Both the position numbers and the translations under genes were made by a program. DNA of 64,000 nt from Eledone cirrhosa. Lineage: Eukaryota. Where the stretch lies: positions 204,352,001 through 204,416,000 of the forward strand of contig OZ024743.1 of assembly GCA_964016885.1 (NCBI GenBank), in the 5' to 3' direction. The notes below the pieces were generated by a model. That model did no database searches and was not told the DNA's origin. It saw only the letters and a list, made by a program, of their open reading frames with translations. Position 1 is the stretch's first letter; each line of letters begins with the position of its first letter. Below, piece after piece: positions 17,251 through 52,745 of the stretch.

Positions 17251-20200
17251 ATATAAGATCAAAAGATGGTTAAAGGAGTTCCATGTATTTTATTATGCGC
17301 ATAGTACAATTCGAGGAAGAATTAACTAAAATAATAAAAAATCTTAAATTCAAGAGATACCCTTACAAAGGACAAGAGCACCTTGTAAATCTCAAGAATA
17401 CAATCTCTAACCTAAATTCCTCAAAAAATGTTTTAGTCCACTCTGACAAAACCAATAACTTATATGGTATTTCCAAGGATAATTATAACAACCTTATCCT
17501 AAAGGAACTTAGGAAAAAGTATCGTAAAACCAACCATGAAAATTTAGAATACATAAACCTTGAAGCCTCTGAGATTATGTCAAAACTTGGCATTGAAAAA
17601 AAGACCGAACCATTCCTCCCAAGAACTCCGAGGATAAATCTCAAGGATCACAAAAACAATTTTCGCACTGAACTACCTGTTAGATTAATCGCCCCCTCTA
17701 AATCTGATCTGGGGGTTGTTAGTAAAGCCATCTTGGATAGAATTATCCCACAGGTTAGTTCTAATTGCTCTTCTTTGAACCTAAATTTATGGTTTGGTAC
17801 TTCTGAGGTGATTGGCTGGTTCAACAAATTGGATAATAAAAACAAACTAAAATTTATTCAATTTGATATTGCCAGCTACTATTCCTCCATTTCGCCTTCA
17901 CTTCTCAATAATGCTCTATCTTTCGCACTTAAATATTCTGACATCACCACAGATGAACTTCACATCATCCTCACCGCACGTAAAACCATCCTAGAGTTCA
18001 ACAACGAATATTGGACCAGAGCCGATACCTCTAACAACTTCGACATCACAATGGGAGCATCCGATTCATCCCAATTGACTGATTTAATTGGTATCTTCAT
18101 TTTGAACTCTTTGAGTCGGAAAATTCCTCAACTTCGCGGTGGAATTTATCGTGACGATGGACTCTTTACTATCCTAAATTGCAATATAGTTAACCTTAAT
18201 ATTATTAAGAACAATATACGTAATCTCTTTAACCAACATAACCTAAAAATTGAATTTGATAATAGTATCAAACTAGCTAATTTCTTGGATGTATCTCTTA
18301 ATCTTGACACTGGCCTATATTACCCTTACCATAAAAACAATGAGAACCTAAATTATGTTAACTTTAAATCTAACCATCCTACCAATATCAAGAATGCTAT
18401 AGTTAGTAATATTGGAAAAAGAATATCTAACATATCCTCTAATAAAAACATCTTTGATGCTAACGCCAATTACTATAATAACGCACTTTCTAAAGCCGGC
18501 TATCCAGATAAAATCAAATATAGTAAAGAAACAAATTCTAGAAAAACTTGCAGTAGAATAATTAATCATGATCATTCCAATAATTTTAATAAAAGACCTA
18601 GATACAAAAACATAATCTAGTATAATGCTCCTTTCTCCATCTCTATTAATAACAATATTCCTAAATTATTTTTTAGTGCCTTAAATAAATGCTTCCCCCC
18701 CTCACATATCTATAGTAAAATATTTAACAAACACACCATCAAATTTTCTTATTCTACATCCTCCAATATTTCCAACATCATCTCTAAACACAACAATAAA
18801 ATACTAAATACTAAATCTCTTCCTTCCAACATTGAATTTTATAATAACAGTAATAGTACTCCCGACGTCATTGTAAACCCTAGGCTAACTTCTGTAAACC
18901 CAAATACAACGTCAAACACAACTTCGCTAAATGTTCATAATCCAACTCTAAATCAAGAAACTATTATTCCTATTATTCCTATCGCAAACAACTTCTCCAA
19001 TCCAATTCCTTCTATAGATAACATTAGGTCACTCATTAATAATCTCTCTAATTGCAACTGCCGCATTAAAAATAAATGTCCTCTCAACAACCATTGTCTC
19101 GATAAAAACTTAATTTATGAATGTAAAATTATAACTAGCACCAATTCCTTCACCTATTTTGGCTCCACTTCCACCTCTTTTAAAGCTCGTCTCTATAATC
19201 ATCATTCATCTTTCAAATACAAACTTAAAAGAACCAACACTGCTCTCTCAGAACTCATATGGTCCTTAAAAGACAAAAACATTAATTATACCATCTTTTG
19301 GAAGAAGGTTTCTTCTGCATCCTCATACTTGAACAGCTCTCTATCTAAAATCTGTAATCTCTGCCTAAATGAAAAATTTACCATTATCTCTAACCTAGAT
19401 TCTATAATAAATAGACGTACAGATTTGTTTTCTATCTGCCTGCATAAATTCCATAGGACTTTTCACAAAGTATACAGTTAATATTCAATTCTTTATCAAT
19501 TTAGAATCTTTTCTCAAAGGCACATATACATACACCTCTTTAAAATATACCCATCTTCCTACCTTACTTTAAAGGGCATTATACACTCTATAATACTTGT
19601 TTACTCATTACCCTCATTCTATCTTCACCTTGTAAAATCCTTCATAACATATACATTTGTTTTTTTGACGTTAGAATATTCATCCGCAATTATTATTATT
19701 TTTTCTCTCTATCATAAATCTTTTTAATCTCAATTTCATCCTTAATTTATTATTTTTTTCTCCCCATCAACGAACTCATTCTTAATACATATTAACTCTT
19801 TATTCGCATATATTATCAATTCCTTCAATATACAAACTTTAACTTCACATTATTTTTCTCAAATCCTTCTACACACAAACCTTAATAATTTTTCTCTTCG
19901 TTAATTTTGAAATTGCCACAATACTTATCAACATACACTTTTTTTGACGTTAGAATATTCATCCACAATTATTATTTTTTCTCTCTATCTTCATACATAA
20001 ATTCCCTTCGTTAATTTTCAAATTCCTTTAATTTATACATTATCTTCCAACGGTTCTCAACCTCTCTATGTAAAACTATATATCTTTTTCTCAGTTATAA
20101 AAACTATCTCTTTCTCTCTATCACCCATCTCTCCCTCTCCACCTTCACTCTCATCTCCTCCCTCTTTTTTCATCCTCCCCCCCCCCTCCCTAAATAAAAT

Positions 20201-20611
20201 ATTTTTCCTCGCACATATCCTCCCTTCGTTAATTTTCAAATTTTTTTAATTTATACATTATCTTCCAAAGGTTTTCAACCTCTCTATGTAAAACAATATA
20301 TCTCCTCTCAGTTATAAAAACTATCTCTTTCTCTCTATCACCCATCTCTCCCTCTCATCTCCTCCCCTTTTTCATCCTTTCCACCCCCCCCTCTCTAAAT
20401 AAAATATTTTTCCCAATATCACACATCAATCTAAAACCACTTTTCATATGTTGATTTAAAACTGCACTATCCACAAGTGTTTTTTAGCCTTCATATCATG
20501 TTCTCCTGTTTTATCTGATGAAAACACAAATATTATTGCATGATGATGTTTGTTTTTGATATGCGCATAATAAAATACATGGAACTCCTTTAACCATCTT
20601 TTGATCTTATA

Positions 20612-20612
<1 letters not shown>
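17251..20612 (+). mobile_element. Penelope-like element (tentatively Nematis-like), RT + GIY-YIG, 5'-truncated with inverted terminal segment; copy 1
   Basis: SDKTNNLY; FDIASYYSSI; MGASDS; GGIYRDDG; CNCRIKNKCPLNNHC; LIYEC..YFG..RLYNH; CNLCLNEK. The frame runs to 19481 with one TAG at 18618. 17251-17303 is the reverse complement of 20560-20612. Confidence 0.93.
20509..20575 (+). ncRNA. Hammerhead-like motif at the PLE 3' end (GAAA changed to GATA)
   Basis: ttttat-CTGATGA-aaacacaaat...gtttgttttt-GATA-t-gcgc-ATA-ataaaa; copy at ~42956-43022. Confidence 0.6.
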
Positions 20613-20667
<55 letters not shown>

Positions 20668-20742
20668 CTATGACCAGTGTACATAGATCACAGACACCCA
20701 CATATATATATATATATATATACACGCACACACACATACATT

Positions 20743-21283
20743 ATCATCATCATCATCATTTAACATCCTTCTTCCATGCTATGGGTTGGACGGTTTTGTC
20801 CCACTTGAGGCGAGATTGGTCAGGAGACCGTGTCTCGCTGGTACAGAACTGTCGCTGGCAGGTTTACTATGGCTGGATGCCCTTCCTAACACCAACCACA
20901 TTTACAGTATGGACTGGCATCCTTTTTACCGTGTCTCCTACATGACCACTTTACAGTGTGGACTGGGTGCTTCTTGTTGTGTCACCTACACGACCGCTTT
21001 ACAGTGGATGGAAATAGGAGGATGGAGTAGGGGATGTGGCCTGGGGTGTATATTGGGTTAAGAGGTGCCTACTGACTGTAGGTTTAAGTTTGTATGCAAG
21101 GGAAGGGGTGTTTTCTGTATAACTGCATAGCGCCAAAGATCTCGATCCAGTGATATTGTCTTAGAGAGGTGTAAGTGAGCAAGGTCAGTTTTTATCAACT
21201 CGTCCCAAGTTTTTCTTGGTCTAAGCACTCCGTAACTTCCATCAATTTTGATCGCCCTGCACATTTTTATACAACTGTTGTCC
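20743..21283 (-). mobile_element. RTE LINE 3' fragment (copies at ~43195-43735 and ~46703-47243)
   Basis: CRAIKIDG...RPRKTWDELIKTDL...DRDLWRYAV; 3' UTR matches 62340-62700; (GAT)n tail. Confidence 0.85.
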
Positions 21284-21912
21284 TACACCAGGAGAAAGGT
21301 AGGAACAGCTGTAAAAATGCATCATGATCAACATATATAGAAAGTAGAAAGAGCCACATCTGTTGAAGCATAACAATATCTGTAGAAACATACAAACACC
21401 TGTAGAAAGATAGCAGCATATATAAAAAGTTGTACTTATATTTAACTATAAAGTATCATAGAAAACATTGATTTTTTCACACTATTAGAGAAGTGATTAG
21501 ATAGAGCTCAATATTTTACTGGTAAATATATTTTATTGACTCAGGAGGACTAAAAGCCAAATATACACCTATTATGATTTGCAGCACAGAAATATAAAAA
21601 GTCATGCCTCAATTAAACACTGTATCTAAGATGGGAAATATTGATTCGTTCTGACTAGAGAAAGAGTATAATCAACTAATTTTACTCTGGGATATTACAG
21701 GTGAAGGCACATTTAAGCAAGATACTTTATTTCATGCTGCTCCTTCTGCCTGGATTTGTGACCAGTAAATAGTATTAGCAATTGGAAAGACCAATAGAAA
21801 CATTGTTTTCTCAGTCCGATTTGACAAGGTTTGCGATCTTGTTGATCGACTGTCGATATTACAGGTATTTATTCTAGTAATACTCAGGAGTGGATGGGTG
21901 TGGAGGCAATTA

Positions 21913-22116
21913 CTGTATATACTCGAATATAAGCCAATTCAAATATATGCTGACCCCTTATTTTATGTCTGAGAAATAGGTGAAAATCCAAACCCTACTT
22001 ATAAACTGAGGCAGCTAATCAACACATTGTTTAGATAGCGTATATAAGCCAACCTCCCATTTTACCACAGATTTTTTTTTATACATATTCCTCAATTTAT
22101 ATTTGAGTATATATGG
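21913..22116. mobile_element. Tc2/pogo-like MITE with TA target-site duplication
   Basis: ta-CTGTATATACTCGAATATAAG ... TTTATATTTGAGTATATATGG-ta imperfect TIRs; copies near 44365 and 47873. Confidence 0.6.
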
Positions 22117-23110
22117 TAAATATGAGCTCAGAATGAAGAAAGATGTAAGTAAATATTTTAATTCTAAGTTTTGGAGAAATGATATATATACTAATTCAAG
22201 ATGGACTACAAACAATACAAACATGAAGAACAGTAATGAGATATACCAACAAAGCAATGGCGGTATCAGGAAATCAATGAGATGAACTAATGATAAACTA
22301 ATCAACTGATTAACAAGACAGAAACGTCTGGTGGAGAACTTGTAAATTAAATAAGGAAACTAGCAACAGAATTATACCAGAGTAGACAAAAAGACATTAC
22401 TGAGAGTGAGAAAAAATTGTCAGAGCACTATAATAAATTTAATGATATAAGGATATGATATATTGAAATAATGATAACATACAATGATATAACAACAACA
22501 ACAATAATAATAATGGTTTCTCATTTAGGCACAAGGCCAATGTGTATACACACACATTTATATATATACATACACACACGTATATATGTGGGCCTTCCAG
22601 TTTCATTTCACATTATATACATGTCTGTGTACATTTTAATTATTCAAAAATTAATTTTAAGTGAACATGATTTTTTTTAATAGAACGTGGTCCAACGGGT
22701 CACAGCTGGTCTAGTTATTATTATTATTTATTTACCAAAGCAATCTGGCTTATTTATAGAAGCTCCACTGAAGATTTCTCTCCCCTATCTCACATCCATA
22801 ATGAATCTAGGCCACGTAGAGACTGGTGGAGTCTATGTACATTTCCTCTATTCATACCAGTAAGTTCAGTTAACTACGAAATAGCAAAGCACACAGTTAT
22901 TCAGCATGTTCTACAATGTTAAGACTACTCACAACAGTGATAATTTGCTGCCATACCATACTTACATACAGATAGCTTCAATGTACATTTGAAAGTGAAG
23001 TGTTTGGTCAGCGATTGTTTGAAAAAAACGTCTGTCACACTATCTATGGTAGATATGTGCTGATTAAAACAACAATAACAAGAGCATAAACAAGAAAAGT
23101 AAGGTCTTAC

Positions 23111-23253
23111 CATCCCTATTTTTACACAATTTCTCTGTGGCAACCATTAAACTGGGATTGATTCCGTATAATTCCATGTATTCCTTAATTTCATGGCACG
23201 CAGTAAAATCTTTTATGCAAGTAGTCAATGTTTTCTTTTGAATTCCATCCGTA
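23111..23253 (-). CDS. Candidate exon (phase 2-1) of the Cys-rich gene
   Basis: tttctag|t...gatg|gtaaga; 143 bp open: TDGIQKKTLTTCIKDFTACHEIKEYMELYGINPSLMVATEKLCKNRD; splices in frame to exon 32892-33027. Confidence 0.6.
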
Positions 23254-23499
23254 CTAGAAACAGATTTAAAGTTAGACTGAAATGCATGTGACTTGATTTG
23301 ATTTCTAGTTTCATGTATGCATGATCTGTGTTAGCATTAAGAAAAACACCAGAGAGACAAATGATCAACCAAATTATACAATTTGTAATATTTGCCGTGA
23401 GAAAAAGTACAGGTAGAAAATATAAAGCTTCAAGTATTCCCCACTGCAGACAACGTATTTCGAAACATCATTTAGATGTCATTAATTTAAGTATTAGCA

Positions 23500-23812
23500 A
23501 CACATTGAAGTCAATTTAATCTACTAAACGTGTCTTCTACCAAACTTTAACTTCCTAGACATTAATTTAGATCTAAGTCCATGCACAAACAGACTATTCG
23601 GTAAACCCAGTGAAAATCTTAAGTTCATTCATAAGGACTCTAGTCACCCTGTCCCCACTACATCAGCAAGAGGATATCCAACCTCTCTTCTAGCAAAGCC
23701 ATTTTTAATAGGGCAGCCCTAAGCAACAGCGGCTTCTCTGAGAGAATCACTTACTCTCCAGATCACCGCCTTATATCTAGCAAGAAAAAACCTAGACATA
23801 AAGACATCATGT
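23500..23812 (+). mobile_element. Degenerate PLE RT-thumb fragment (inverted partial copy at 31129-31260)
   Basis: NFLDINLDLS...KPSENLKFIHKDSSHP..ISKRISNLSSSKAIFNRA/ALSNSGFSERITYS..KKKPRHK, homologous to the PLE at 17251. Confidence 0.75.
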
Positions 23813-23830
23813 ATAATATATATATATATA

Positions 23831-24169
23831 TATCGGTTTCAGCATCATATGCATCGTTAAATGCGGGTATGCAGAATATTGTTAAGTTGCATATTTGTAC
23901 AAATAGTGATGAAAATAATAGTAAAAATAAAAAGGGGAAGAAAAATAAATTTTCATATACATGTTCATATACTGTCACAACCAAGCTACTAACAGAGATG
24001 GATGGACAGGGAAATGAACTCTCTTCTCTGAATGAACATGTATGTGAAAATAAATTTTCCTTCCCCTTTTATTTTTTATTATTATTTTTATCACTATTTG
24101 TACAAATATGCAACTTAACAATATTCTGCATATCCGCATTTGACAATGCATATGATGCTGAAACCGATA
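23831..24169. repeat. Fold-back: ~135-bp inverted arms around a ~65-bp spacer, carrying a degenerate U3:A8 hammerhead (24131-24178 +)
   Basis: 23831-23969 is the reverse complement of 24032-24169; TTGACAA-tgcat-atg-atgct-GAAAC-cg-ATA; flanked by (TA)n. Confidence 0.75.
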
Positions 24170-24256
24170 TTGTAAATAAGTTAATGTTTTGATATTTCAC
24201 TGAAAAAATCTCTTCAACATTTTCAACTGAAAAAATGTTTTTCCTTTCTACTATTT

Positions 24257-24374
<118 letters not shown>

Positions 24375-24471
24375 TTGAGGTTGGTAATGGCACATGGAAT
24401 ATATAAGAGACAGAATACTTTTTTGTGAAAAAACATAATTTTATAAGGTAAGGAAATAATAAAGGGTATAA

Positions 24472-24519
24472 AAAATGACCGGTTTCGATGGGTCTGCAAA
24501 AGCCATCTTTTCAAATGTT
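24472..24519 (-). ncRNA. Type I hammerhead, U3:A8 variant (left arm; further copy at ~46115-46162)
   Basis: Reverse complement of 30916-30963. Confidence 0.75.
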
Positions 24520-24979
24520 GATTAATATTAAGAAAAATTAATAATACGAAGAGTTAAAATTTGAGACTTGAAAATTCAAGTATAAAATTCATTGTGGGAT
24601 TTCATAGCAGTTTTCATCTTGGTAGCAACAACAGGTTGACTGCTGTGTCCCTTTCTGGTAGTGAATGAGAAGTTATTTGGGGTGTGGGTTATTTTATAAA
24701 GGTCAGATTTAGCAATCACCAACTGGCCAGCTGCTGGTCAGTGAGGGGGTGGAAGCAATATACATACACATATCTTCCTGTGATGGGTAGGAGAGTGGAG
24801 CGTGATAGAAAGGGATTTAGTGCACTTACACCTATATATACACACATACCTTCATCCACACATACATACATATACATATACATATATATATATATATATA
24901 TATACATATACACACATACATACACACACACATACATATACATACACACATACACACACACACATATATATATACACAT

Positions 24980-25036
<57 letters not shown>

Positions 25037-25077
25037 TATATATATACATACACATACATCCAGATACACACATACAT

Positions 25078-25133
<56 letters not shown>

Positions 25134-25665
25134 CCACACATACATACACACACACACACATATATATATACATACACACATAAAAACATACACACACACA
25201 CACACATATATATACACACACATACACACACATATATACACACACACACACACACACGCACACACAATACATACATCCACATGCACACACATACACACAC
25301 ACACATATACACATACATACACCCACACACAGAGAAATGGCCTTCAAATATATATATATATATATACATACAGACACATATATTTTTTCCATAATATAAG
25401 AAGTTGGGGCAGTGAAATTAAAATACAAGTCATTCTGATCACATTGAGTTCTTCATGTAGATTGGGCCCCGCAACCGACAGTGGTGAATTCTGTGTGCGC
25501 ATATATATATAGATATATGTGTGTGCACGTGCAGGGTTTAACATGGATGTGTTGGTCACACAAAGGCATGGTCTGTCAATGAATAAACCTGATTCTACAG
25601 AATTGGTCTCTGGTCTTTAATAGTAGTGATTCCGTGCGTATGTGTGTTTATATTTTATGACAATT

Positions 25666-27705
25666 CTATTGGGGTGATAACCCGTTTAGTTTTGGTTTAA
25701 ATTTGTTAAAGAATAGATTTTCTTTGTTTATTCTTTGTTGCTGTGTGAACGAATCTGAGCACTTGTAGAAGGGGAAGATTTTAAAGTTGGGTAGTATCAT
25801 TCCTGCGCAGTTCGCAATATGGCTGCTCAAGGGGATTTTTCTTGTGTTAGCGTCCCGGATTTGTTGGCGGTGGATGGTCATTCTTTTGCGTAATGAGGTG
25901 CCCGTCTGTCCTATGTAGTTGTGTTTGCACCCACCGCAAGTTATTGCGTAAATCAAGTTCTCCGAGTTGCAGGTGAAATTGTTTTTTACTGTAAATGTTT
26001 GGCCATCTTTGAATGTAAATGTTTGTCCTTCAGTGAGGTAGAGGCACGTTCCACAGTTTGTTCTACCACATTTGGTAACTGTAGGGTTGAGGATTGGTTT
26101 GGGTATATTTGGTCCAGTGAGAATGCGTTTAAGTGATTTGGGTTGTCTTTTACTTTTAAGGATCTTGTGTGTTTCAAGAATAGACTTCATTTTTACATCT
26201 TTAAGTAGGATGGGGAGGTTTTTGTGTAGGTGATCAAACATTTCGGTATTTCTGGGGTTGAAAGTGGATACATATGGCAGGGTGTTGAGTGTGGTTTTCT
26301 GTTTTGGATTGTTAAGTTGATGGGGATTTAGGTGTTTTGCCCTGTCTATTCCATTGTTGATTATTTCAAGTGGAAAGGCTCTTAAGATAAGGGTGTCTTT
26401 TAGTTCCTTTAGTCTTTGCTCCCGTTTAGGTGGATCTGATACTATGGTACATATACGTTTGGCCAAATTGTAAGGAATGTTAAGTTTTGTATGTTTTGGG
26501 TGACTTGATGTGAAAAAGAGGTATTGCTTGGAATCTGTGGGTTTATAGAATATATCTGTATCAGAGATGAGAATATCCAAGAAGGCTAATTCCTTAGGAT
26601 TGGATTCCATTGTGAATTGTATGTTATTATCTATGTTGTTTATCATGTTTTTAAACGTAGTAAGTGAGTTCATGTCTTCTTGCCATAGGATAAAGCAGTC
26701 GTCTAGATATCTTTTCCAATTGGCTTTGAGGTGTGTGTGGAAAGAGTCTCCAAATAAGAGAAGGGACTGACTGTATATTTGTTGTTCATGGAATCCCATG
26801 ACTAGGTTGGCATATGTGGGTGCTACTTTCGTGCCCATTGCCGTACCTGATACTTGTCTGTATGTTGAACCATTGAATGTGAAGTAGTTATTTTGTAGGA
26901 TAAAGCGGAGTCCGTCAGTGATAAAATCTGTGTTGATGCGTGTCGGTATTTCTGATGGGTGTGTGTTAAGCCAGTATTGGACTGCTGTTATTCCATAGTT
27001 GTGAGGTATGTTTGTGTAGAGGTTTATTACGTCAAAGGAGACAAGAATTGTATTTGCACTTACTGTTTTAGGGAGGTGTTTCAGCATGTCAAGGTCATCT
27101 CGTATGTAGCTCTGTATATGTTGTAGAAAGGGTTTCAGTAGGATGTCCAGAAAGTTGCTAAGTCTGTGGGTTTCACATGTAGGGCCTGCTATAATTGGCC
27201 TGAGTTTTAGGTCTTCTGGTGGTGTTAGTTCAATGTAATTGTTGGTTGAGGTGTCACATGCATCGTTTATGGGTTTACATTTGTGAAGTTTCGGTAACCC
27301 GTAAAAAGAGCTTGTATTGCATTTGAAGTGGCTTATATAGTTAAACTCTTTTGTGGTTAAGCTGTTGCGGTATTTATTCAGTAAGGTCAAAAGGTTCCCC
27401 ATTGTTTTGGTGTGTTTGTAGTTTTCTGTTTTTTCATAGTATGTGTTGTTTTCTAAAATGTTAAGTGCGAGGGTCCTATAGTAGTCCGTATTCATAATGA
27501 CAACAGTACTGCCTTTATCGGCTTCTTTGATAGTTATCTCAGGGTTGTTTCTAAGTGTGAATAATTCTTCCCATTCGTGTGTAGATAGGTTTGATTTCGT
27601 GTGTTTATTTGTAATTTTTTCATAGGGAAAGTTGGTGATGTGTTCGCAGTACGTGTCCAGTGCTTTATTTCTTCCCTTTTGTGGGCAGAAATTGCTTTTA
27701 TAAAA
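25666..27705 (-). CDS. PLE RT + GIY-YIG polyprotein, 5'-truncated, otherwise open
   Basis: Translation identical to the right arm apart from residues at the palindrome centre. Confidence 0.85.
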   Translation of the reverse strand, partial: FYKSNFCPQKGRNKALDTYCEHITNFPYEKITNKHTKSNLSTHEWEELFTLRNNPEITIKEADKGSTVVIMNTDYYRTLALNILENNTYYEKTENYKHTKTMGNLLTLLNKYRNSLTTKEFNYISHFKCNTSSFYGLPKLHKCKPINDACDTSTNNYIELTPPEDLKLRPIIAGPTCETHRLSNFLDILLKPFLQHIQSYIRDDLDMLKHLPKTVSANTILVSFDVINLYTNIPHNYGITAVQYWLNTHPSEIPTRINTDFITDGLRFILQNNYFTFNGSTYRQVSGTAMGTKVAPTYANLVMGFHEQQIYSQSLLLFGDSFHTHLKANWKRYLDDCFILWQEDMNSLTTFKNMINNIDNNIQFTMESNPKELAFLDILISDTDIFYKPTDSKQYLFFTSSHPKHTKLNIPYNLAKRICTIVSDPPKREQRLKELKDTLILRAFPLEIINNGIDRAKHLNPHQLNNPKQKTTLNTLPYVSTFNPRNTEMFDHLHKNLPILLKDVKMKSILETHKILKSKRQPKSLKRILTGPNIPKPILNPTVTKCGRTNCGTCLYLTEGQTFTFKDGQTFTVKNNFTCNSENLIYAITCGGCKHNYIGQTGTSLRKRMTIHRQQIRDANTRKIPLSSHIANCAGMILPNFKIFPFYKCSDSFTQQQRINKENLFFNKFKPKLNGLSPQ

Positions 27706-27713
27706 GAAATTGC

Positions 27714-39699: not shown

Positions 39700-42600
39700 A
39701 TATAAGATCAAAAGATGGTTAAAGGAGTTCCATGTATTTTATTATGCGCCTAGTACAATTCGAGGAAGAATTAACTAAAATAATAAAAAATCTTAAATTC
39801 AAGAGATACCCTTACAAAGGACAAGAGCACCTTGTAAATCTCAAGAACACAATCTCTAACCTAAATTCCTCAAAAAATGTTTTAGTCCACTCTGACAAAA
39901 CCAATAACTTATATCGTATTTCCAAGGATAATTATAACAACCTTATCCTAAAGGAACTTAGGAAAAAGTATCGTAAAACCAACCATGAAAATTTAGAATA
40001 CATAAACCTTGAAGCCTCTGAGATTATGTCAAAACTTGGCATTGAAAAAAAGACCGAACCATTCCTCCCAAGAACTCCGAGGATAAATCTCAAGGATTAC
40101 AAAAACAATTTTCGCACTGAACTACCTGTTAGATTAATCGCCCCCTCTAAATCTGATCTGGGGGTTGTTAGTAAAGCCATCTTGGATAGAATTATCCCAC
40201 AGGTTAGTTCTAATTGCTCTTCTTTGAACCTAAATTTATGGTTTGGTACTTCTGAGGTGATTGGCTGGTTCAACAAATTGGATAATAAAAACAAACTAAA
40301 ATTTATTCAATTTGATATTGCCAGCTACTATTCCTCCATTTCGCCTTCACTTCTCAATAATGCTCTATCTTTCGCACTTAAATATTCTGACATCACCACA
40401 GATGAACTTCACATCATCCTCACCGCACGTAAAACCATCCTAGAGCTCAACAACGAATATTGGACCAGAGCCGATACCTCTAACAACTTCGACATCACAA
40501 TGGGAGCATCCGATTCATCCCAATTGACTGATTTAATTGGTATCTTCATTTTGAACTCTTTGAGTCGGAAAATTCCTCAACTTCGCGGTGGAATTTATCG
40601 TGACGATGGACTCTTTACTATCCTAAATTGCAATATAGTTAACCTTAATATTATTAAGAACAATATACGTAATCTCTTTAACCAACATAACCTAAAAATT
40701 GAATTTGATAATAGTATCAAACTAGCTAATGTCTTGGATGTATCTCTTAATCTTGACACTGGCCTATATTACCCTTACCATAAAAACAATGAGAACCTAA
40801 ATTATGTTAACTTTAAATCTAACCATCCTACCAATATCAAGAATGCTATAGTTAGTAATATTGGAAAAAGAATATCTAACATATCCTCTAACAAAAACAT
40901 CTTTGATGCTAACGCCAATTACTATAATAACGCACTTTCTAAAGCCGGCTATCCAGATAAAATCAAATATAGTAAAGAAACAAATTCTAGAAAAACTTAC
41001 AGTAGAATAATTAATCATGATCATTCCAATAATTTTAATAAAAGACCTAGATACAAAAACATAATCTGGTATAATGCTCCTTTCTCCATCTCTATTAATA
41101 ACAATATTCCTAAATTATTTTGTAGTGCCTTAAATAAATGCTTCCCTCCCTCACATATCTATAGTAAAATATTTAACAAACACACCATCAAATTTTCTTA
41201 TTCTACATCCTCCAATATTTCCAACATCATCTCTAAACACAACAATAAAATACTAAATACTAAATCTCTTCCTTCCAATTTTATAATAACAGTAATAGTA
41301 CTCCCGACGTCATTGTAAACCCTAGGCTAACTTCTGTAAACCCAAATACAACGTCAAACACAACTTCGCTAAATGTTCATAATCCAACTCTAAATCAAGA
41401 AACTATTATTCCTATTATTCCTATCGCAAACAACTTCTACAATCCAATTCCTTCTATAGATAACACTAGGTCACTCATTAATAATCTCTCTAATTGCAAC
41501 TGCCGCATTAAAAATAAATGTCCTCTCAACAACCATTGTCTCGATAAAAACTTAATTTATGAATGTAAAATTATAACTAGCACCAATTCCTTCACCTATT
41601 TTGGCTCCACTTGCACCTCTTTTAAAGCTCGTCTCTATAATCATCATTCATCTTTCAAATACAAACTTAAAAGAACCAACACTGCTCTCTCAGAACTCAT
41701 ATGGTCCTTAAAAGACAAAAACATTAAATATACCATCTTTTGGAAGAAGGTTTCTTCTGCATCCTCATACTTGAACAGCTCTCTATCTAAAATCTGTAAT
41801 CTCTGCCTAAATGAAAAATTTACCATTATCTCTAACCTAGATTCTATAATAAATAGACGTACAGATTTGTTTTCTATCTGCCTGCATAAATTCCATAGGA
41901 CTTTTCACAAAGTATACAGTTAATATTCAATTCTTTATCAATTTAGAATCTTTTCTCAAAGGCACATATACATACACCTCTTTAAAATATACCCATCTTC
42001 CTACCTTACTTTAAAGGGCATTATACACTCTATAATACTTGTTTACTCATTACCCTCATTCTATCTTCACCTTGTAAAATCCTTCATAACATATACATTT
42101 GTTTTTTTGACGTTAGAATATTCATCCGCAATTATTATTATTTTTTCTCTCTATCATAAATCTTTTTAATCTCAATTTCATCCTTAATTTATTATTTTTT
42201 TCTCCCCATCAACGAACTCATTCTTAATACATATTAACTCTTTATTCGCATATATTATCAATTCCTTCAATATACAAACTTTAACTTCACATTATTTTTC
42301 TCAAATCCTTCTACACACAAACCTTAATAATTTTTCTCTTCGTTAATTTTGAAATTGCCACAATACTTATCAACATACACTTTTTTTGACGTTAGAATAT
42401 TCATCCACAATTATTATTTTTTCTCTCTATCTTCATACATAAATTCCCTTCGTTAATTTTCAAATTCCTTTAATTTATACATTATCTTCCAACGGTTCTC
42501 AACCTCTCTATGTAAAACTATATATCTTTTTCTCAGTTATAAAAACTATCTCTTTCTCTCTATCACCCATCTCTCCCTCTCCACCTTCACTCTCATCTCC

Positions 42601-43058
42601 TCCCTCTTTTTTCATCCTCCCCCCCCCCCCTCCCTAAATAAAATATTTTTCCTCGCACATATCCTCCCTTCGTTAATTTTCAAATTTTTTTAATTTATAC
42701 ATTATCTTCCAAAGGTTTTCAACCTCTCTATGTAAAACAATATATCTCCTCTCAGTTATAAAAACTATCTCTTTCTCTCTATCACCCATCTCTCCCTCTC
42801 ATCTCCTCCCCTTTTTCATCCTTTCCACCCCCCCCCCCTCTCTAAATAAAATATTTTTCCCAATATCACACATCAATCTAAAACCACTTTTCATATGTTG
42901 ATTTAAAACTGCACTATCCACAAGTGTTTTTTAGCCTTCATATCATGTTCTCCTGTTTTATCTGATGAAAACACAAATATTATTGCATGATGATGTTTGT
43001 TTTTGATATGCGCATAATAAAATACATGGAACTCCTTTAACCATCTTTTGATCTTATA

Positions 43059-43059
<1 letters not shown>
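39700..43059 (+). mobile_element. Penelope-like element, copy 2 of 17251-20612
   Basis: ORF 39732-41318; TGG intact where copy 1 has TAG; 7-bp deletion frameshift at ~41278. Confidence 0.93.
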
Positions 43060-43120
<61 letters not shown>

Positions 43121-45907
43121 CTATGACCAGTGTACATAGATCACAGACACCCACATATATATATATATATATATACACGCACACACACATACATTATCAT
43201 CATCATCATCATTTAACATCCTTCTTCCATGCTATGGGTTGGACGGTTTTGTCCCACTTGAGGCGAGATTGGTCAGGAGACCGTGTCTCGCTGGTACAGA
43301 ACTGTCGCTGGCAGGTTTACTATGGCTGGATGCCCTTCCTAACACCAACCACATTTACAGTATGGACTGGCATCCTTTTTACCGTGTCTCCTACATGACC
43401 ACTTTACAGTGTGGACTGGGTGCTTCTTGTTGTGTCACCTACACGACCGCTTTACAGTGGATGGAAATAGGAGGATGGAGTAGGGGATGTGGCCTGGGGT
43501 GTATATTGGGTTAAGAGGTGCCTACTGACTGTAGGTTTAAGTTTGTATGCAAGGGAAGGGGTGTTTTCTGTATAACTGCATAGCGCCAAAGATCTCGATC
43601 CAGTGATATTGTCTTAGAGAGGTGTAAGTGAGCAAGGTCAGTTTTTATCAACTCGTCCCAAGTTTTTCTTGGTCTAAGCACTCCGTAACTTCCATCAATT
43701 TTGATCGCCCTGCACATTTTTATACAACTGTTGTCCTACACCAGGAGAAAGGTAGGAACAGCTGTAAAAATGCATCATGATCAACATATATAGAAAGTAG
43801 AAAGAGCCACATCTGTTGAAGCATAACAATATCTGTAGAAACATACAAACACCTGTAGAAAGATAGCAGCATATATAAAAAGTTGTACTTATATTTAACT
43901 ATAAAGTATCATAGAAAACATTGATTTTTTCACACTAGTAGAGAAGTGATTAGATAGAGCTCAATATTTTACTGGTAAATATATTTTATTGACTCAGGAG
44001 GACTAAAAGCCAAATATACACCTATTATGATTTGCAGCACAGAAATATAAAAAGTCATGCCTCAATTAAACACTGTATCTAAGATGGGAAATATTGATTC
44101 GTTCTGACTAGAGAAAGAGTATAATCAACTAATTTTACTCTGGGATATTACAGGTGAAGGCACATTTAAGCAAGATACTTTATTTCATGCTGCTCCTTCT
44201 GCCTGGATTTGTGACCAGTAAATAGTATTAGCAATTGGAAAGACCAATAGAAACATTGTTTTCTCAGTCCGATTTGACAAGGTTTGCGATCTTGTTGATC
44301 GACTGTCGATATTACAGGTATTTATTCTAGTAATACTCAGGAGTGGATGGGTGTGGAGGCAATTACTGTATATACTCGAATATAAGCCAATTCAAATATA
44401 TGCTGACCCCTTATTTTATGTCTGAGAAATAGGTGAAAATCCAAACCCTACTTATAAACTGAGGCAGCTAATCAACACATTGTTTAGATAGCGTATATAA
44501 GCCAACCTCCCATTTTACCACAGATTTTTTTTATACATATTCCTCAATTTATATTTGAGTATATATGGTAAATATGAGCTCAGAATGAAGAAAGATGTAA
44601 GTAAATATTTTAATTCTAAGTTTTGGAGAAATGATATATATACTAATTCAAGATGGACTACAAACAATACAAACATGAAGAACAGTAATGAGATATACCA
44701 ACAAAGCAATGGCGGTATCAGGAAATCAATGAGATGAACTAATGATAAACTAATCAACTGATTAACAAGACAGAAACGTCTGGTGGAGAACTTGTAAATT
44801 AAATAAGGAAACTAGCAACAGAATTATACCAGAGTAGACAAAAAGACATTACTGAGAGTGAGAAAAAATTGTCAGAGCACTATAATAAATTTAATGATAT
44901 AAGGATATGATATATTGAAATAATGATAACATACAATGATATAACAACAACAACAATAATAATAATGGTTTCTCATTTAGGCACAAGGCCAATGTGTATA
45001 CACACACATTTATATATATACATACACACACGTATATATATGGGCCTTCCAGTTTCATTTCACATTATATACATGTCTGTGTACATTTTAATTATTCAAA
45101 AATTAATTTTAAGTGAACATGATTTTTTTTAATAGAACGTGGTCCAACGGGTCACAGCTGGTCTAGTTATTATTATTATTTATTTACCAAAGCAATCTGG
45201 CTTATTTATAGAAGCTCCACTGAAGATTTCCATGCACAAACAGACTATTCGGTAAACCCAGTGAAAATCTTAAGTTCATTCATAAGGACTCTAGTCACCC
45301 TGTCCCCACTACATCAGCAAGAGGATATCCAACCTCTCTTCTAGCAAAGCCATTTTTAATAGGGCAGCCCTAAGCAACAGCGGCTTCTCTGAGAGAATCA
45401 CTTACTCTCCAGATCACCGCCTTATATCTAGCAAGAAAAAACCTAGACATAAAGACATCATGTATAATATATATATATATATATCGGTTTCAGCATCATA
45501 TGCATCGTTAAATGCGGGTATGCAGAATATTGTTAAGTTGCATATTTGTACAAATAGTGATGAAAATAATAGTAAAAATAAAAAGGGGAAGAAAAATAAA
45601 TTTTCATATACATGTTCATATACTGTCACAACCAAGCTACTAACAGAGATGGATGGACAGGGAAATGAACTCTCTTCTCTGAATGAACATGTATGTGAAA
45701 ATAAATTTTCCTTCCCCTTTTATTTTTTATTATTATTTTTATCACTATTTGTACAAATATGCAACTTGACAATATTCTGCATATCCGCATTTGACAATGC
45801 ATATGATGCTGAAACCGATATTGTAAATAAGTTAATGTTTTGATATTTCACTGAAAAAATCTCTTCAACATTTTCAACTGAAAAAATGTTTTTCCTTTCT
45901 ACTATTT

Positions 45908-46017
<110 letters not shown>

Positions 46018-46635
46018 TTGAGGTTGGTAATGGCACATGGAATATATAAGAGACAGAATACTTTTTTGTGAAAAAACATAATTTTATAAGGTAAGGAAAT
46101 AATAAAGGGTATAAAAAATGACCGGTTTCGATGGGTCTGCAAAAGCCATCTTTTCAAATGTTGATTAATATTAAGAAAAATTAATAATACGAAGAGTTAA
46201 AATTTGAGACTTGAAAATTCAAGTATAAAATTCATTGTGGGATTTCATAGCAGTTTTCATCTTGGTAGCAACAACAGGTTGACTGCTGTGTCCCTTTCTG
46301 GTAGTGAATGAGAAGTTATTTGGGGTGTGGGTTATTTTATAAAGGTCAGATTTAGCAATCACCAACTGGCCAGCTGCTGGTCAGTGAGGGGGTGGAAGCA
46401 ATATACATACACATATCTTCCTGTGATGGGTAGGAGAGTGGAGCGTGATAGAAAGGGATTTAGTGCACTTACACCTATATATACACACATACCTTCATCC
46501 ACACATACATACATATACATATACATATATATATATATATATATATACATATACACACATACATACACACACACATACATATACATACACACATACACAC
46601 ACACACATATATATATACACATACACACACACACA

Positions 46636-49600
46636 CCAGTGTACATAGATCACAGACACCCACATATATATATATATATATACACGCACACACACATACA
46701 TTATCATCATCATCATCATTTAACATCCTTCTTCCACGCTATGGGTTGGACGGTTTTGTCCCACTTGAGGCGAGATTGGTCAGGAGACCGTGTCTCGCTG
46801 GTACAGAACTGTCGCTGGCAGGTTTTCTATGGCTGGATGCCCTTCCTAACACCAACCACATTTACAGTATGGACTGGCATCCTTTTTACCGTGTCTCCTA
46901 CATGACCACTTTACAGTGTGGACTGGGTGCTTCTTGTTGTGTCACCTACACGACCGCTTTACAGTGGATGGAAATAGGAGGATGGAGTAGGGGATGTGGC
47001 CTGGGGTGTATATTGGGTTAAGAGGTGCCTACTGACTGTAGGTTTAAGTTTGTATGCAAGGGAAGGGGTGTTTTCTGTATAACTGCATAGCGCCAAAGAT
47101 CTCGATCCAGTGATATTGTCTTAGAGAGGTGTAAGTGAGCAAGGTCAGTTTTTATCAACTCGTCCCAAGTTTTTCTTGGTCTAAGCACTCCGTAACTTCC
47201 ATCAATTTTGATCGCCCTGCACATTTTTATACAACTGTTGTCCTACACCAGGAGAAAGGTAGGAACAGCTGTAAAAATGCATCATGATCAACATATATAG
47301 AAAGTAGAAAGAGCCACATCTGTTGAAGCATAACAATATCTGTAGAAACATACAAACACCTGTAGAAAGATAGCAGCATATATAAAAAGTTGTACTTATA
47401 TTTAACTATAAAGTATCATAGAAAACATTGATTTTTTCACACTAGTAGAGAAGTGATTAGATAGAGCTCAATATTTTACTGGTAAATATATTTTATTGTC
47501 TCAGGAGGACTAAAAGCCAAATATACACCTATTATGATTTGCAGCACAGAAATATAAAAAGTCATGCCTCAATTAAACACTGTATCTAAGATGGGAAATA
47601 TTGATTCGTTCTGACTAGAGAAAGAGTATAATCAACTAATTTTACTCTGGGATATTACAGGTGAAGGCACATTTAAGCAAGATACTTTATTTCATGCTGC
47701 TCCTTCTGCCTGGATTTGTGACCAGTATATAGTATTAGCAATTGGAAAGACCAATAGAAACATTGTTTTCTCAGTCCGATTTGACAAGGTTTGCGATCTT
47801 GTTGATCGACTGTCGATATTACAGGTATTTATTCTAGTAATACTCAGGAGTGGATGGGTGTGGAGGCAATTACTGGATATACTCGAATATAAGCCAATTC
47901 AAATATATGCTGACCCCTTATTTTATGTCTGAGAAATAGGTGAAAATCCAAACCCTGCTTATAAACTGATGCAGCTAATCAACACATTGTTTAGATGGCG
48001 TATATAAGCCAACCACCCATTTTACCACAGATTTTTTTTTATACATATTCCTCAATTTATATTTGAGTATATATGGTAAATATGAGCTCAGAATGAAGAA
48101 AGATGTAAGTAAATATTTTAATTCTAAGTTTTGGAGAAATGATATATATACTAATTCAAGATGGACTACAAACAATACAAACATGAAGAACAGTAATGAG
48201 ATATACCAACAAAGCAATGGCGGTATCAGGAAATCAATGAGATGAACTAATGATAAACTAATCAACTGATTAACAAGACAGAAACGTCTGGTGGAGAACT
48301 TGTAAATTAAATAAGGAAACTAGCAACAGAATTATACCAGAGTAGACAAAAAGACATTACTGAGAGTGAGAAAAAATTGTCAGAGCACTATAATAAATTT
48401 AATGATATAAGGATATGATATATTGAAATAATGATAACATACAATGATATAACAACAACAACAATAATAATAATGGTTTCTCATTTAGGCACAAGGCCAA
48501 TGTGTATACACACACATTTATATATATATATACACACACGTATATATATGGGCCTTCCAGTTTCATTTCACATTATATACATGTCTGTGTACATTTTAAT
48601 TATTCAAAAATTAATTTTAAGTGAACATGATTTTTTTAAATATTTTGAAGAGAACGTGGTCCAACGGGTCATAGGTGGTCTAGATATTATTATTATTTAT
48701 TTACCAAAACAATCTGGCTTATTTATAGAAGCTCCACTGAAGATTTCTCTCCCCTATCTCACATCCATAATGAATCTAGGCCACGTAGAGACTGGTGGAG
48801 TCTATGTGCATTTCCTCTATTCATACCAGTAAGTTCAGTTAACCACGAAATAGCAAAGCACACAGTTATTCAGCATGTTCTACAATGTTAAGACTACTCA
48901 CAACAGTGATAATTTGCTGCCATACCATACTTACATACAAATAGCTTCAATGTACATTTGAAAGTGAAGTGTTTGGTCAGCGATGGTTTGAAAAAAACAT
49001 CTGTCACACTATCTATGGTAGATATGTGCTGATTAAAACAACAATAACAAGAGCATAAACAAGAAAAGTAAGGTCTTACCATCCCTATTTTTACACAATT
49101 TCTCTGTGGCAACCATTAAATTGAGATTGATTCCGTATAATTCCATGAATTCCTTAATTTCATTGCACGCAGTAAAATCTTTTATGCAAGTAGTCAATGT
49201 TTTCTTTTGAATTCCATCCGTACTAGAAACAGATTTAAAGTTAGACTGAAATGCATGTGACTTGATTTGATTTCTAGTTTCATGTATGCATGATCTGTGT
49301 TAGCATTAAGAAAAACACCAGAGAGACAAATGATCAACCAAATTATACAATTTGTAATATTTGCCGTGAGAAATAGTACAGGTAGAAAATATAAAGCTTC
49401 AAGTATTCCCCACTGCAGACAACGTATTTCGAAACATCATTTAGATGTCATTAATTTAAGTATTAGCAACACATTGAAGTCAATTTAATCTACTAAACGT
49501 GTCTTCTACCAAACTTTAACTTCCTAGACATTAATTTAGATCTAAGTCCATGCACAAACAGACAGAAAGTTGCATATTTGTACAAATAGTGATAAAAATA

Positions 49601-49939
49601 ATAGTAAAAACAAAAAGGGGAAGAAAAATAAATTTTCATATACATGTTCATATACTGTCACAACCAAGCTACTAACAGAGATGGATGGACAGAGAAATGA
49701 ACTCTCTTCTCTGAATGAACATGTATGTGAAAATAAATTTTCCTTCCCCTTTTATTTTTTATTATTATTTTTATCACTATTTGTACAAATATGCAACTTA
49801 ACAATATTCTGCATATCCGCATTTGACAATGCATATGATGCTGAAACCGATATTGTAAATAAGTTAATGTTTTGATATTTCACTGAAAAAATCTCTTCAA
49901 CATTTTCAACTGAAAAAATGTTTTTCCTTTCTACTATTT

Positions 49940-49942
<3 letters not shown>
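46636..49942 (+). repeat. Third copy of sub-block B (20674-24260)
   Basis: Collinear at ~25.96-kb offset. Lacks 23594-23883 but keeps the segment deleted in copy 2. Confidence 0.93.
49080..49222 (-). CDS. Paralogous candidate exon (copy of 23111-23253)
   Basis: Open frame; four substitutions, all amino-acid changing (H>N, Y>F, P>L, S>N). Confidence 0.6.
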
Positions 49943-49980
<38 letters not shown>

Positions 49981-50840
49981 GATGGGTTTATGTCTTGGTT
50001 TTTTCTTGCTAGATATAAGGCGGTGATCTGGAGAGTAAGTGATTCTCTCAGAGAAGCCACTGTTGCTTAGGGCTGACATTTTGTCATTGAATAAATCCGC
50101 TACTGTGTGGAAATTTAGGAGTGGCTCTTCCTGTTGTTGTTTTGCTATATAATAAATGTATATATTATATATATACATCATCATCATCACCATTTAACGT
50201 CCATTTTCCACGCTAGCATGAGTTAGATGGGATTTTCCATTAGAGGCAAGTCAGATCAGGTGACTATGTCTTACTCATATAGAACTGTTTCTGGCTAGAT
50301 TTCTATGGTTGGATGTCCTTCCTAACGCCAACCAGATTTACAGTATGTGCTGGATGCTTTGTTGGGGCATGGGAGATGTATGGAAGGAGGTATAGTGGTT
50401 AAGATTGTATGTATTACTGCATAATGCCAACATTTTGATCCTGTATCATTGTCTTTGATGTCAGCTTTTATCACCTCATACCAGGTCTTCCTACTTCATA
50501 GCTTCTATCAACTTTGATTGCCCTGCACATTCTTTTACAGATGTCACCCTTCATATGCATCACATCACCATACCAACACAATCTATTCTCTAGCATACTG
50601 CATCTGATCCCTCTTAAGCCTAATTTCTCTCTCAGTTCATTTACGTTTTGCCGTTCGTGTATATTACTATCACATATCCATCAAAGCATGCAAGCATCAT
50701 CTGTTAGGGATTGATTAAAATGCAACTTCCATGGTCCACCAACAAACAGATTTTAGCTTTGTTGCCATGTCACACCTCTGCTACTCAAGCACATTGAACA
50801 GCTTTCATTAATAATAAGTGGAGATAAGCTATATATATAA

Positions 50841-51843
50841 CTAGCATTAAAGCCCGGCGTTGCTCGGGGTCAGTAAGTTACGAAAGTTAGGTTGCACCAC
50901 CCATTTTATGGCAGCACTTTTTTGTCTGCCAGGCACTTGGTGAATGAATAGTAGACCTGGACTGCCGAAGCAGGAGCTGCTCCAGCAGTGACAATTGTAG
51001 TTTCGCCTATGGATATTTTCTCTGTGCAAAGAAGTGTTGAAATTTATTGTTTCACAGTACTTGCGTAACACGCGCATAGACGATGCCAGCCGAACAACAG
51101 AGCTGCGATGGAGTTGTTCTGCATGGTTGTCTAATGTGTGTTTTCTAAATTTAAGACAATAGGGAGGGGTGTGGTGTGGGGGAGAGTTAGCTGTTGTTTC
51201 TAGCAGGTTTAGTGACCTCATAGAGTATATGTGTTTTCTAAATTTAAGACAGTAGGGAGGGGTGTGATATGGGGGAGAGTTAGCTGCTGTTTCTAGCAGG
51301 TTTAGTGACCTCATAGAGGATATTATTGTGTATAGTAAATAAACTGATACTTCTTTCTTCCACGTTCGTTGAGAGATGTTTTAAAAAAGATTTATCGCTA
51401 TTTTTTTTGTTGTTGAATAAATTTATCTGTTGCTTATGAATAATTGTTGTCATGGAAGTAAATAATATTTTGACCGTTCCACACTCAAAAACAAACGTTC
51501 TCGTCTCTCTCCTTCGTTTCTTTCTCTCTTCTTTCTTCGGCGTTCCTAAAGAAGTTTGTAAGTTTAAGCGTATAAGAGAAAGTTGCATGTATGTAGTTTT
51601 ATCGAATTGTAAGGGAAGTAGAGAGAGGATATCAGATTGTATTAGAGGGTTAAAGTATCATGTATTTAGTTTTATCGATTATTTCCGTAAATGTAGGTGA
51701 GTTTGAACGAAATAAATAGTCGGTGACCTACGTTAGACCATTTACAACATTCTTACAGACGTTGAGTCGAATCGGTTTGAAATTGTGCAAATGTATAAAC
51801 ATGGAACATGCCCACACACAACAACAATCTGCCTTTTATAGAT
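50841..51843 (-). mobile_element. Non-autonomous Helitron-like element, both ends present
   Basis: 5' TC and 3' hairpin + CTAG, inserted between A and T. Confidence 0.65.
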
Positions 51844-51847
51844 AATT

Positions 51848-52187
51848 GTTTCTACTTTTGGCACAAGGCCAGCAATTAGCCAGTACATTACTAGTACTTT
51901 ATTTTATCGACCCCATAAGGATGAAAGGCAAAGTTAGCCTCGGCGGGATTTGAACTCAGAATGTAAAGGGACATAACTATGCTAGAAAGCATTTTATAGA
52001 TAATTGTTTCTACTTTTGGCACAAGGCCAGCAATCACCCAGTACATTACTGGTACTTTATTTTATCGACCCCGTAAGGATGAAAGGCAAAGTTAACCTCT
52101 GCGGGATTTGAACACAGACCGTAAAAGGGCGTAACTATGCTGGAAAGCATGGCGTCCGACTCTCTACTGATACTGCCAATCCACCGT
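51848..52187 (-). mobile_element. Two tandem tRNA-derived SINE copies
   Basis: Same family as 88-536; separated and followed by the repeat 'ttttatagataatt'. Confidence 0.8.
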
Positions 52188-52296
52188 CCAAGCATTTTAT
52201 AGATAATTATACATATATGTATTGAGTTTTAACATAAATAAAAGACTTCAAAATTTATAACGTAATGACAAGTGATTAAGTGATTATTCAAATTAC

Positions 52297-52432
52297 TTGC
52301 AAAAAATATCGAATTCCTCTTTTGTCGAGTCTGCCTTCTTTGGCTGAATTAAACCAGCTGTACAACTTTGAAATTCCTCTAATGCTTTCATTACACAGCC
52401 ATTGGTCACTGGAAACCACCAGGAAATAGTAA
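52297..52432 (-). CDS. Paralogous candidate exon (copy of 32892-33027)
   Basis: Open frame, splice sites intact; K>Q plus one synonymous change. Confidence 0.65.
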
Positions 52433-52714
52433 CTGAAATAAAAGATGGATAAATGATTAAGTATGTATTAATTTTCATATACATGTATATGAGTGTTTGT
52501 GTATGCGTGTATTTGTCCATGTGCATGTATTTGTGTGTGTAAATGGTTCTGGGTAATTACATTGTGTGCATTTTTCTACAAGTGTCTTCTACTGTATCTT
52601 TTGGTTGACCAATAACTTGTGAGTATAATTATGTAAACAGAACAGTATGGAATTCAGCCATATGTATGTTTATATATATATATGTGTATGTGTATGTGTG
52701 TGTGTGTGTGTATG

Positions 52715-52745
<31 letters not shown>

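Follow-up and report, generated by a model that had tools for sequence, protein, structure and literature searches.

Organization of the Locus

The window (the whole 64,000-nucleotide stretch of Eledone cirrhosa DNA analyzed here, from contig OZ024743.1) is AT-rich, with a GC content of 33.7%, and dense in microsatellites. In the sequence as assembled, self-alignment revealed a tandem duplication in which unit A (10787–33314, plus strand) is followed by unit B (33315–52715), itself a composite of B1 (33315–46636, plus strand) and B2 (46635–52715, plus strand). Unit A carries an insert of 6776 bp at 24328–31103, with a few bases uncertain as both ends merge into TA. The insert consists mainly of two head-to-head, 5′-truncated copies of a Penelope-like element (PLE), each about 3.35 kb long, with their 3′ ends pointing outward. 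The arm-to-arm identity spans 24367–31068 (6702 bp).

On the left, (TA)34 (24260–24327) borders 39 nt of extra (CT)n/(GA)n (24328–24366, minus strand), which are absent from the right arm and from the empty site described below. The left junction of A counts 22 GA units in total, compared with about 2.5 in the element's own end. The left arm (24367–27700, minus strand) is the inverted copy without a tail, and it ends where the right arm reads TTTTCTCT|ATA; the element's own sequence therefore supplies a TATA microhomology to the target. The arms meet at a center (27687–27729) that shows no foreign spacer and an 18-nt templated duplication. The right arm contains an ORF remnant of 677 codons without a stop (27720–29753, plus strand; mirrored at 27699–25666) and a 3′ region of about 1.35 kb, including a 0.5-kb complex CA/TA microsatellite (30088–30601, plus strand; mirrored at 24834–25331). 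The arms differ only in this microsatellite, at their ends, and at the center. A 35-nt tail (31069–31103, plus strand) is present at the right end only and is unique in the window, where it has, beyond itself, only short matches at chance level (E of at least 0.46). It is followed by (TA)12 (31104–31128).

A reading of the center, TTTTATAAAA, as a native hairpin was rejected, since every inverted junction without a spacer is self-complementary by construction; most among the homologues listed have N instead of Y at this point. A 16-nt gap in the comparison of the inner arms proved to be an artefact of unequal cut points at the center and not an arm difference. The stem-loop spanning the arm/tail boundary is weak (z = −1.99; 11 of 200 shuffles were equally good).

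The first-pass annotation described one filled and one empty site. Both exist, but a second filled left junction in B1 (45911–46636, minus strand), comprising (TA)34(GA)18 and about 620 bp of arm, had been missed, and the site is therefore present in three versions. The B1 arm breaks off within the CA microsatellite. Its join to B2 has a 2-bp microhomology (AC), and there the sequence jumps back to the equivalent of 20673, the start of B2. B2 is a version of 20673–24259 plus 31104–33312 without the insert. It repeats 3.3 kb of the left flank, so the empty site lies 3.3 kb from the broken filled copy. B1 also has an 800-bp deletion (22779–23577 of A), and B2 has a 290-bp deletion of its own (relative to 23595–23883), 380 bp upstream. 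Between A and B1, divergence falls from 1.78% to 0.43% and 0% in successive blocks toward the insert. The B1 truncation and the 800-bp deletion both show 2-bp microhomology and are younger than the A/B1 split, itself very recent. This would fit palindrome-induced breakage or, with lower probability, assembly joins at microsatellites.

At the duplication junction (33314/33315 and 10787), a (TATGTG)n tract meets the middle of a reading frame with 2-bp microhomology. The frame has no Pfam match and resembles a DNA-transposon transposase. A 557-bp insertion in B2 (51660–52216), which A lacks, is a second presence/absence polymorphism between the units. It consists of 158-bp units in tandem, with related repeats at 152–537, 2693–2900, and 9577–9769, and apparently has a short imperfect direct repeat at its flanks.

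The Empty (TA)n Site

The empty target site is a pure (TA)18 tract at 49943–49978, within the diverged copy B2, bounded by ...CTACTATTTGTT on one side and ATGATGGGTTTA on the other. Its left flank is identical to 23884–24259 in 373 of 376 columns, and its right flank differs from 31129–33312 by 38 substitutions in 2180 aligned columns and four indels. This match between the empty and filled sites is far beyond chance, and the empty site is genuine. The alignment of both flanks thus bears out the earlier claim that an empty (TA)n with the palindrome's flanks (24260 and 31129) exists in the window. No trace of GA, tail, or arm is left there, and the tract very likely represents the pre-insertion state. 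B2 may be either an allele of the filled copy, as the heading of the first-pass annotation has it, or a paralogue, as its text has it; both fit the window.

The first-pass annotation took the whole palindrome, with (TA)n on both sides, to be the insert. TA tracts are indeed found on both sides, but neither abuts the palindrome directly, as 35 nt intervene on the right and 39 nt of (GA)n on the left. The proposed insert was accordingly too small, since the 35-nt tail and the extra (GA)n also belong to it. The empty site holds no part of the insert, which is therefore not inverted host DNA, as the first-pass annotation had argued. The run of the left arm from TTTTCTCT into (CT)n and then (TA)n was read correctly and corresponds to (TA)34(GA)22 at 24260–24371. 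Slippage, which had been suggested for this junction, is plausible because the empty site lacks GA, and may have taken place during or after insertion.

The filled site has 34 + 12 TA units and the empty site has 18, and any target-site duplication is hidden inside (TA)n. Outside the insert, tracts of (TA)≥6 make up 5.3% of the window; in its first 52.7 kb their share is 1.5%. Given this background, one insertion event is no proof of the (TA)n preference that had been considered.

The target is bracketed by 120-bp inverted repeats (23714–23833 and 31106–31224; also 45365–45484 and 49956–50075), which are 95–96% identical and each have a (TA)n end. The target (TA)n is therefore the end of an older repeat fragment. 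The left repeat lies within a frame resembling the thumb region of a Hydra-type PLE. Directly to the left of the target is a MITE-like 340-bp hairpin (23830–24170; 45481–45821; 49567–49853), whose left arm is shorter in B2 through the 290-bp deletion, which has a 3-base filler.

Identity of the Element

The ORF lacks about 65–90 N-terminal residues. It starts at profile position 66 of 744, and 78 of the 93 homologues aligned from its start have at least 40 extra residues upstream. The missing N-terminus was not found in the pLTR or tail by tblastn with 120 homologue N-termini or with a profile built from 78 of them (best profile E 0.68). The ORF contains the RT motifs ADKG, SFDVINLYT, GTAMG, and YLDD, and Pfam detects RVT_1 only (E 3.8e-7). 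Its homologues number 940, the best being 59% identical, and the nearest named ones are bivalve sequences or belong to bins named as bivalve symbionts, which would suggest a marine invertebrate host. Several of the top protein matches are labelled as symbiont proteins. Across 19 homologues, the ORF retains 111 of the 113 invariant columns, and both changes are conservative.

The same ORF encodes a GIY-YIG domain with CCHH (LIYAITCGGCKHNYIG, RKRMTIH, HIANC; residues 582–597 of 677), and PF01541 is present in many of its homologues. Upstream of GIY, a CX4CxxC linker (CGRTNCGTC) is located at residue 544. The spacing from CxxC to the pre-GIY cysteine is 24 aa here and 23–24 in all 19 of the 19 homologues. 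Judged by eye from the supplement of PMC8557442, it is about 20–25 in the Neptune rows and below 10 in two Nematis rows, and its use to separate these groups is our own interpretation of that partially available alignment, not a published definition.

An RT with DKG, a C-terminal GIY-YIG, an inverted copy with 5′ truncation, and a one-sided 35-nt tail are the features of EN+ Penelope-like elements. The C-terminal EN with a CX2-5CxxC linker, shared with Nematis, and the long CxxC-to-cysteine spacing point to Neptune. Hydra elements have DKT and CxCX5C and no CCHH, and Naiad elements an N-terminal endonuclease, according to the available part of PMC8557442; the palindromic element has DKG, CX4CxxC, CCHH, and a GIY-YIG at the C-terminal end, and is neither. 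It is probably a 5′-truncated Neptune-type PLE, as its domain order, linker, and spacing match Neptune over Nematis, Hydra, and Naiad.

A scan of genome contigs gave 55 pattern matches, which led to four distant relatives (L001–L004, 30–44% identity) and no member of the palindrome's own family. L003 ends in (AT)22, L001 and L002 have short TA runs, and L004 is without a 3′ end. These relatives are Neptune-type PLEs with hammerhead-like motifs, located in contigs of prokaryotic genome bins; they are probably host-derived contamination and not bacterial PLEs.

A Candidate Hammerhead Ribozyme

A candidate minimal hammerhead ribozyme is located at 30921–30958 on the plus strand, with mirrors at 24514 and 46157 on the minus strand. 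It combines a U3:A8 core, a variant described in the accessible part of PMC4209133, with a 5-bp helix II, a palindromic helix III, and a helix I of only 2 bp. A descriptor written after the candidate had been seen has three matches in the window, all of them arm copies; it also matches both pLTRs of L003, and none of 3000 shuffles. Rfam returned no match in the whole window at the gathering threshold and two chance matches only in an E-value scan of 30780–31110. The canonical CTGANGA core is absent from both strands of the right arm, and the candidate is not the minimum-energy fold (fold z = −0.82).

Counted from the predicted cut, the two arms end at +140 and +175. The candidate helix II contains the start of an ATG (30929), located 30 nt ahead of that cut; the 21-codon frame that it opens (MAFADPSKPV...) bears only a loose likeness to homologue starts.

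Direction and Age of the Event

The 2479 columns shared by A, B1, and B2 contain 18 SNPs specific to B2, two to A, and one to B1. Nesting B2 within the filled pair would need a rate imbalance of 18:1 or 18:2 (p = 8e-5 or 4e-4). We sought to polarize these 21 sites with other repeat copies in the window as outgroups, which are 74–91% identical. No outgroup copy was available for 14 sites, two had microsatellite matches only, one was homopolymer-ambiguous, and one was derived in B1. At all three of the cleanly polarized B2-only sites (20777, 20866, 23911), B2 carries the outgroup base, and A and B1 share the derived one. The first-pass annotation had named shared derived SNPs grouping the empty site inside the filled copies as the sign of a later excision; the empty copy is not nested in this way. 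The SNP pattern and its polarization thus exclude a recent excision from A or B1 and still allow an old insertion that was lost in B2.

The two arms show no difference in 2832 unique columns (0 of 489 for the B1 arm). If the insertion had predated the A/B2 split, 26–35 differences would be expected from the A–B2 divergence of 0.91–1.24%, assuming no gene conversion between the arms and no homogenization by consensus polishing. The arm microsatellites differ by seven substitutions and five indels in 463 columns, indicating that the arms were resolved separately and were not freshly converted end to end. The convergence of A and B1 to 0% near the insert is as expected around a young shared event. 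We are confident that the event was an insertion and not an excision, and the 6.8-kb mirror-image element is likely a recent insertion of a known kind.

Proposed Mechanism of Insertion and Its Alternatives

We propose that a Neptune-type PLE probably inserted into the pre-insertion (TA)18 by target-primed reverse transcription, with both cut strands serving as primers. The GIY-YIG endonuclease would cut both strands within (TA)n. Priming by the bottom-strand end at an outer start site would produce the right arm and its tail; the left end would lack a tail because the top-strand end primed at an inner start site, 35 nt upstream. At the inner start, UCUCUAUA of the RNA could pair with the target TATA, and two CU template units may have been copied repeatedly, or expanded soon after insertion, to produce (GA)18–22. 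One cDNA would stop about 65–90 codons into the ORF and fold back, and its self-copying would proceed as far as the other cDNA; the outcome would be arms of equal length and a center without a spacer but with the 18-nt templated duplication. The equal length of the arms is the reason a template switch is needed. Later, the filled segment would have been copied (A, B1); breakage followed by microhomology repair would then have removed most of the palindrome from B1.

The native 3′ end, tail, and center are all read from one locus, and the family is known here from a single full copy. We lean toward priming from two strands at two start sites. Where the 3′ pLTR of L003 (tandem pLTRs) meets (AT)22, there is a 4-nt ATAT match to the continuing sequence of L003 itself, and L001 and L002 have TA runs of 9–10 nt located 83–88 nt after a hammerhead-like core. 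Synthesis of (GA)n at the time of insertion is favored by the lack of GA at the empty site and by the identical TCTCT of the right arm, which is unexpanded. The GA run differs by four units between A and B1 (22 and 18) and must therefore also change once inserted. This difference and an unrelated compound (CT)6(TA)n tract at 16316 count against synthesis during insertion, which we regard as possible but somewhat doubtful. It seems unlikely that a telomerase-related RT added about 20 GA repeats from a two-unit CU template during two-strand, two-start priming.

A single priming event could instead account for the structure, if the tailed right-hand cDNA formed a fold-back, was extended along its own strand nearly to its start, and became linked through TATA to the left (TA)n, with (GA)n growing later. 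One template switch would then explain both the equal arms and the spacer-free center, and the available part of PMC3846280 favors self-priming for head-to-head junctions. The variable GA count of A and B1 would also be accommodated, but the copy would have to stop exactly 35 nt short, which is the canonical tail length, and the unexpanded TCTCT of the right arm would need another explanation. Growth from about 2.5 to about 20 units by replication slippage is, moreover, unlikely within the age of a 0%-diverged insertion, which counts against single priming, and we consider this route rather unlikely. Alternatively, the target allele may already have been (TA)n(GA)m, with the element pairing over 8 nt (TATAGAGA), so that the GA run would be host DNA and not a product of slippage. 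Compound TA/GA tracts do occur elsewhere in the window (5682–5763; 16316–16342 and its duplicate), and the empty copy, about 1% diverged, need not show the exact target allele. Such a target would, however, have to be (TA)n(GA)m(TA)k. With nothing but (TA)18 at the empty site and (TA)12 at the right junction, a pre-existing host tract is quite improbable.

The remaining alternatives concern the relationship between the copies. It can be argued that the insertion is old, predating the A/B2 split, that B2 lost it cleanly by TA–TA recombination or hairpin deletion, and that gene conversion kept the arms identical. No date for the insertion follows from the tree (A,B1),B2 alone, and the flanking (TA)n tracts could serve as direct repeats. 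The palindrome is also unstable, B1 having lost all but about 620 bp, and B2 carries its own 290-bp deletion nearby. This explanation nevertheless conflicts with the complete identity of the arms where 26–35 differences would be expected, and wholesale recent conversion would have erased the differences between the arm microsatellites. The unbroken ORF, the convergence of A and B1 toward the insert, and an empty site without GA, tail, or arm remnant also speak against it, and we judge it highly improbable. Another explanation is that assembly has linked, at microsatellites, what are in fact haplotypes or collapsed paralogues (A, B1, and B2); the empty site would then be allelic, and at least one of the joins at 33314/33315 and 46635 would be false. 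Both joins come directly after a complex microsatellite with 2-bp microhomology only, and the block-wise divergence between A and B1 resembles that of allelic haplotypes. Yet three distinct versions of 20673–24259 need at least one real duplication in a single diploid, and assemblers join on long overlaps, not on 2 bp; an assembly product is rather unlikely. False joins would in any case leave the conclusion on the empty site unchanged. In the extreme form of this explanation, the palindrome itself is a fold-back read chimera. Such a chimera would mirror the left flank, and here the true right flank continues collinearly after a unique tail; a chimera is therefore unlikely, consistent with the first-pass view that the site makes an artefact less likely.

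If GA repeats were indeed added from the CU template during two-strand priming, which we consider unlikely, Neptune PLEs would be able to add repeats in the manner of telomerase and would be a source of compound (TA)n(GA)n microsatellites. A (GA)n run made at priming would link PLE RTs functionally to telomerase repeat addition. Spacer-free multi-kilobase palindromes would drive local deletions and duplications such as those of B1; this broken sister copy suggests that such palindromes destabilize their neighborhood.

Relation to Known Penelope-Like Elements

In the accessible part of PMC8557442, PLEs are described with an inverted 5′-truncated copy at the 5′ end and a 30–40-bp tail at one end, and their microsatellite bias is stated to hide target-site duplications. 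The same source reports the linker, citing Arkhipova 2006, as the hypothesized mediator of the Neptune microsatellite bias and Neptune as paraphyletic. Like the Neptune elements described there, the present element has a C-terminal GIY-YIG with CCHH after the RT, a CX2-5CxxC linker, and DKG, together with 5′ truncation, an inverted truncated copy, a tail, a microsatellite target, and no discernible target-site duplication. In contrast to them, the inverted copy here equals the main copy (3.35-kb arms, no spacer), a direct 5′ pLTR is lacking, one junction carries about 20 extra GA units, and the 3′ region of about 1.35 kb includes a 0.5-kb microsatellite. The Hydra and Naiad clades have a (TA)n insertion bias and inverted ends, as far as the accessible part of PMC8557442 describes them, and the (TA)n target and inverted copy of this element resemble these features.

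The anole PLE PAc (Poseidon) cleaves and extends both strands in vitro, its tail lies between two RT start sites, and its ORF starts in HHR stem II, 26 nt before the cut, according to the available part of PMC11167929. An AT-rich target is common to both systems, and so would be the cutting and extension of both strands, the tail between two start sites, and, if the candidate HHR is genuine, an ORF start or ATG in stem II about 26–30 nt before the cut. PAc belongs to a different clade, however, and initiates without target homology, in contrast to the 4-nt TA microhomology found here and in L003; the part of PMC11167929 available to us describes no repeat addition. Penelope elements of Adineta vaga show head-to-head structures, palindromes at the inverted junction, and a 31-bp tail at one end only; insertion was proved there by means of an allelic empty site with 2% divergence (PMC3846280, available in part). 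In that system, the inverted pLTRs are short, the target-site duplications are 8–10 bp, and the targets are non-repeat, whereas here the whole 5′-truncated element is mirrored within (TA)n.

Each component of the locus has thus already been described for PLEs; the sole unusual features are the (GA)n run and the arms, which are equal in length and have no spacer. In the literature searched, which left subscription papers and Repbase mostly outside, we found no closer report of a full-length spacer-free PLE palindrome with an empty site, nor of slippage repeats at PLE junctions. The accessible parts of PMC12602865 and bioRxiv 10.64898/2026.07.22.740005 contain nothing on the junction structure, and no in vitro study of the Neptune clade was found in the literature searched. 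The locus is a well-bounded young example of a known PLE architecture, and it provides exact start-site candidates (31068, 31103) and an intact RT–EN core for a Neptune-type family. How inverted structures and microsatellite bias arise is named as an open mechanistic question in the accessible part of PMC8557442, and a filled/empty pair with asymmetric ends makes both testable.

Other Elements in the Window

A Hydra-type PLE (DKT, CxCX5C) is located at 17162–20612, between (TA)n at about 17144–17161 and (TA)n at about 20613, with a copy at about 39610–43060. Its position between two (TA)n tracts fits the published bias, but it represents another clade. On its left are a 61-bp inverted copy of its own 3′ end and roughly 80 nt of extension. 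A native 10-bp palindrome (20560–20569), which looks like helix III of a degenerate hammerhead, lies at the inverted junction. The copy in A has an in-frame stop, and a 7-bp indel separates the two copies.

A decayed Neptune-type remnant on the minus strand (about 5880–6550, within 5682–9075) lies beside (TA)24(GA)n. It is arranged head-to-head with a Hydra-type remnant (about 6550–9074), which ends at (TA)n, and a 12-bp palindrome is found at the join. A hammerhead-like motif was seen by eye in the Hydra-type remnant near 8900–9010. The TA-to-GA polarity at 5682–9075 is the same as that of the main element. This pair may represent a nested insertion or two templates primed from one cut.

Further hairpins appear in the self-alignment at 56437–56705 (269 bp, 97%) and 57265–57850 (586 bp, 87%, with (TA)n on the left). 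Two minus-strand frames, 61442–62263 and 62632–63519, resemble 3′ parts of non-LTR retrotransposons; in 62632–63519, Pfam detects a PHD finger only. Non-coding relatives of the 61442–63519 frames are found at 20742–21287 and 31324–31848.
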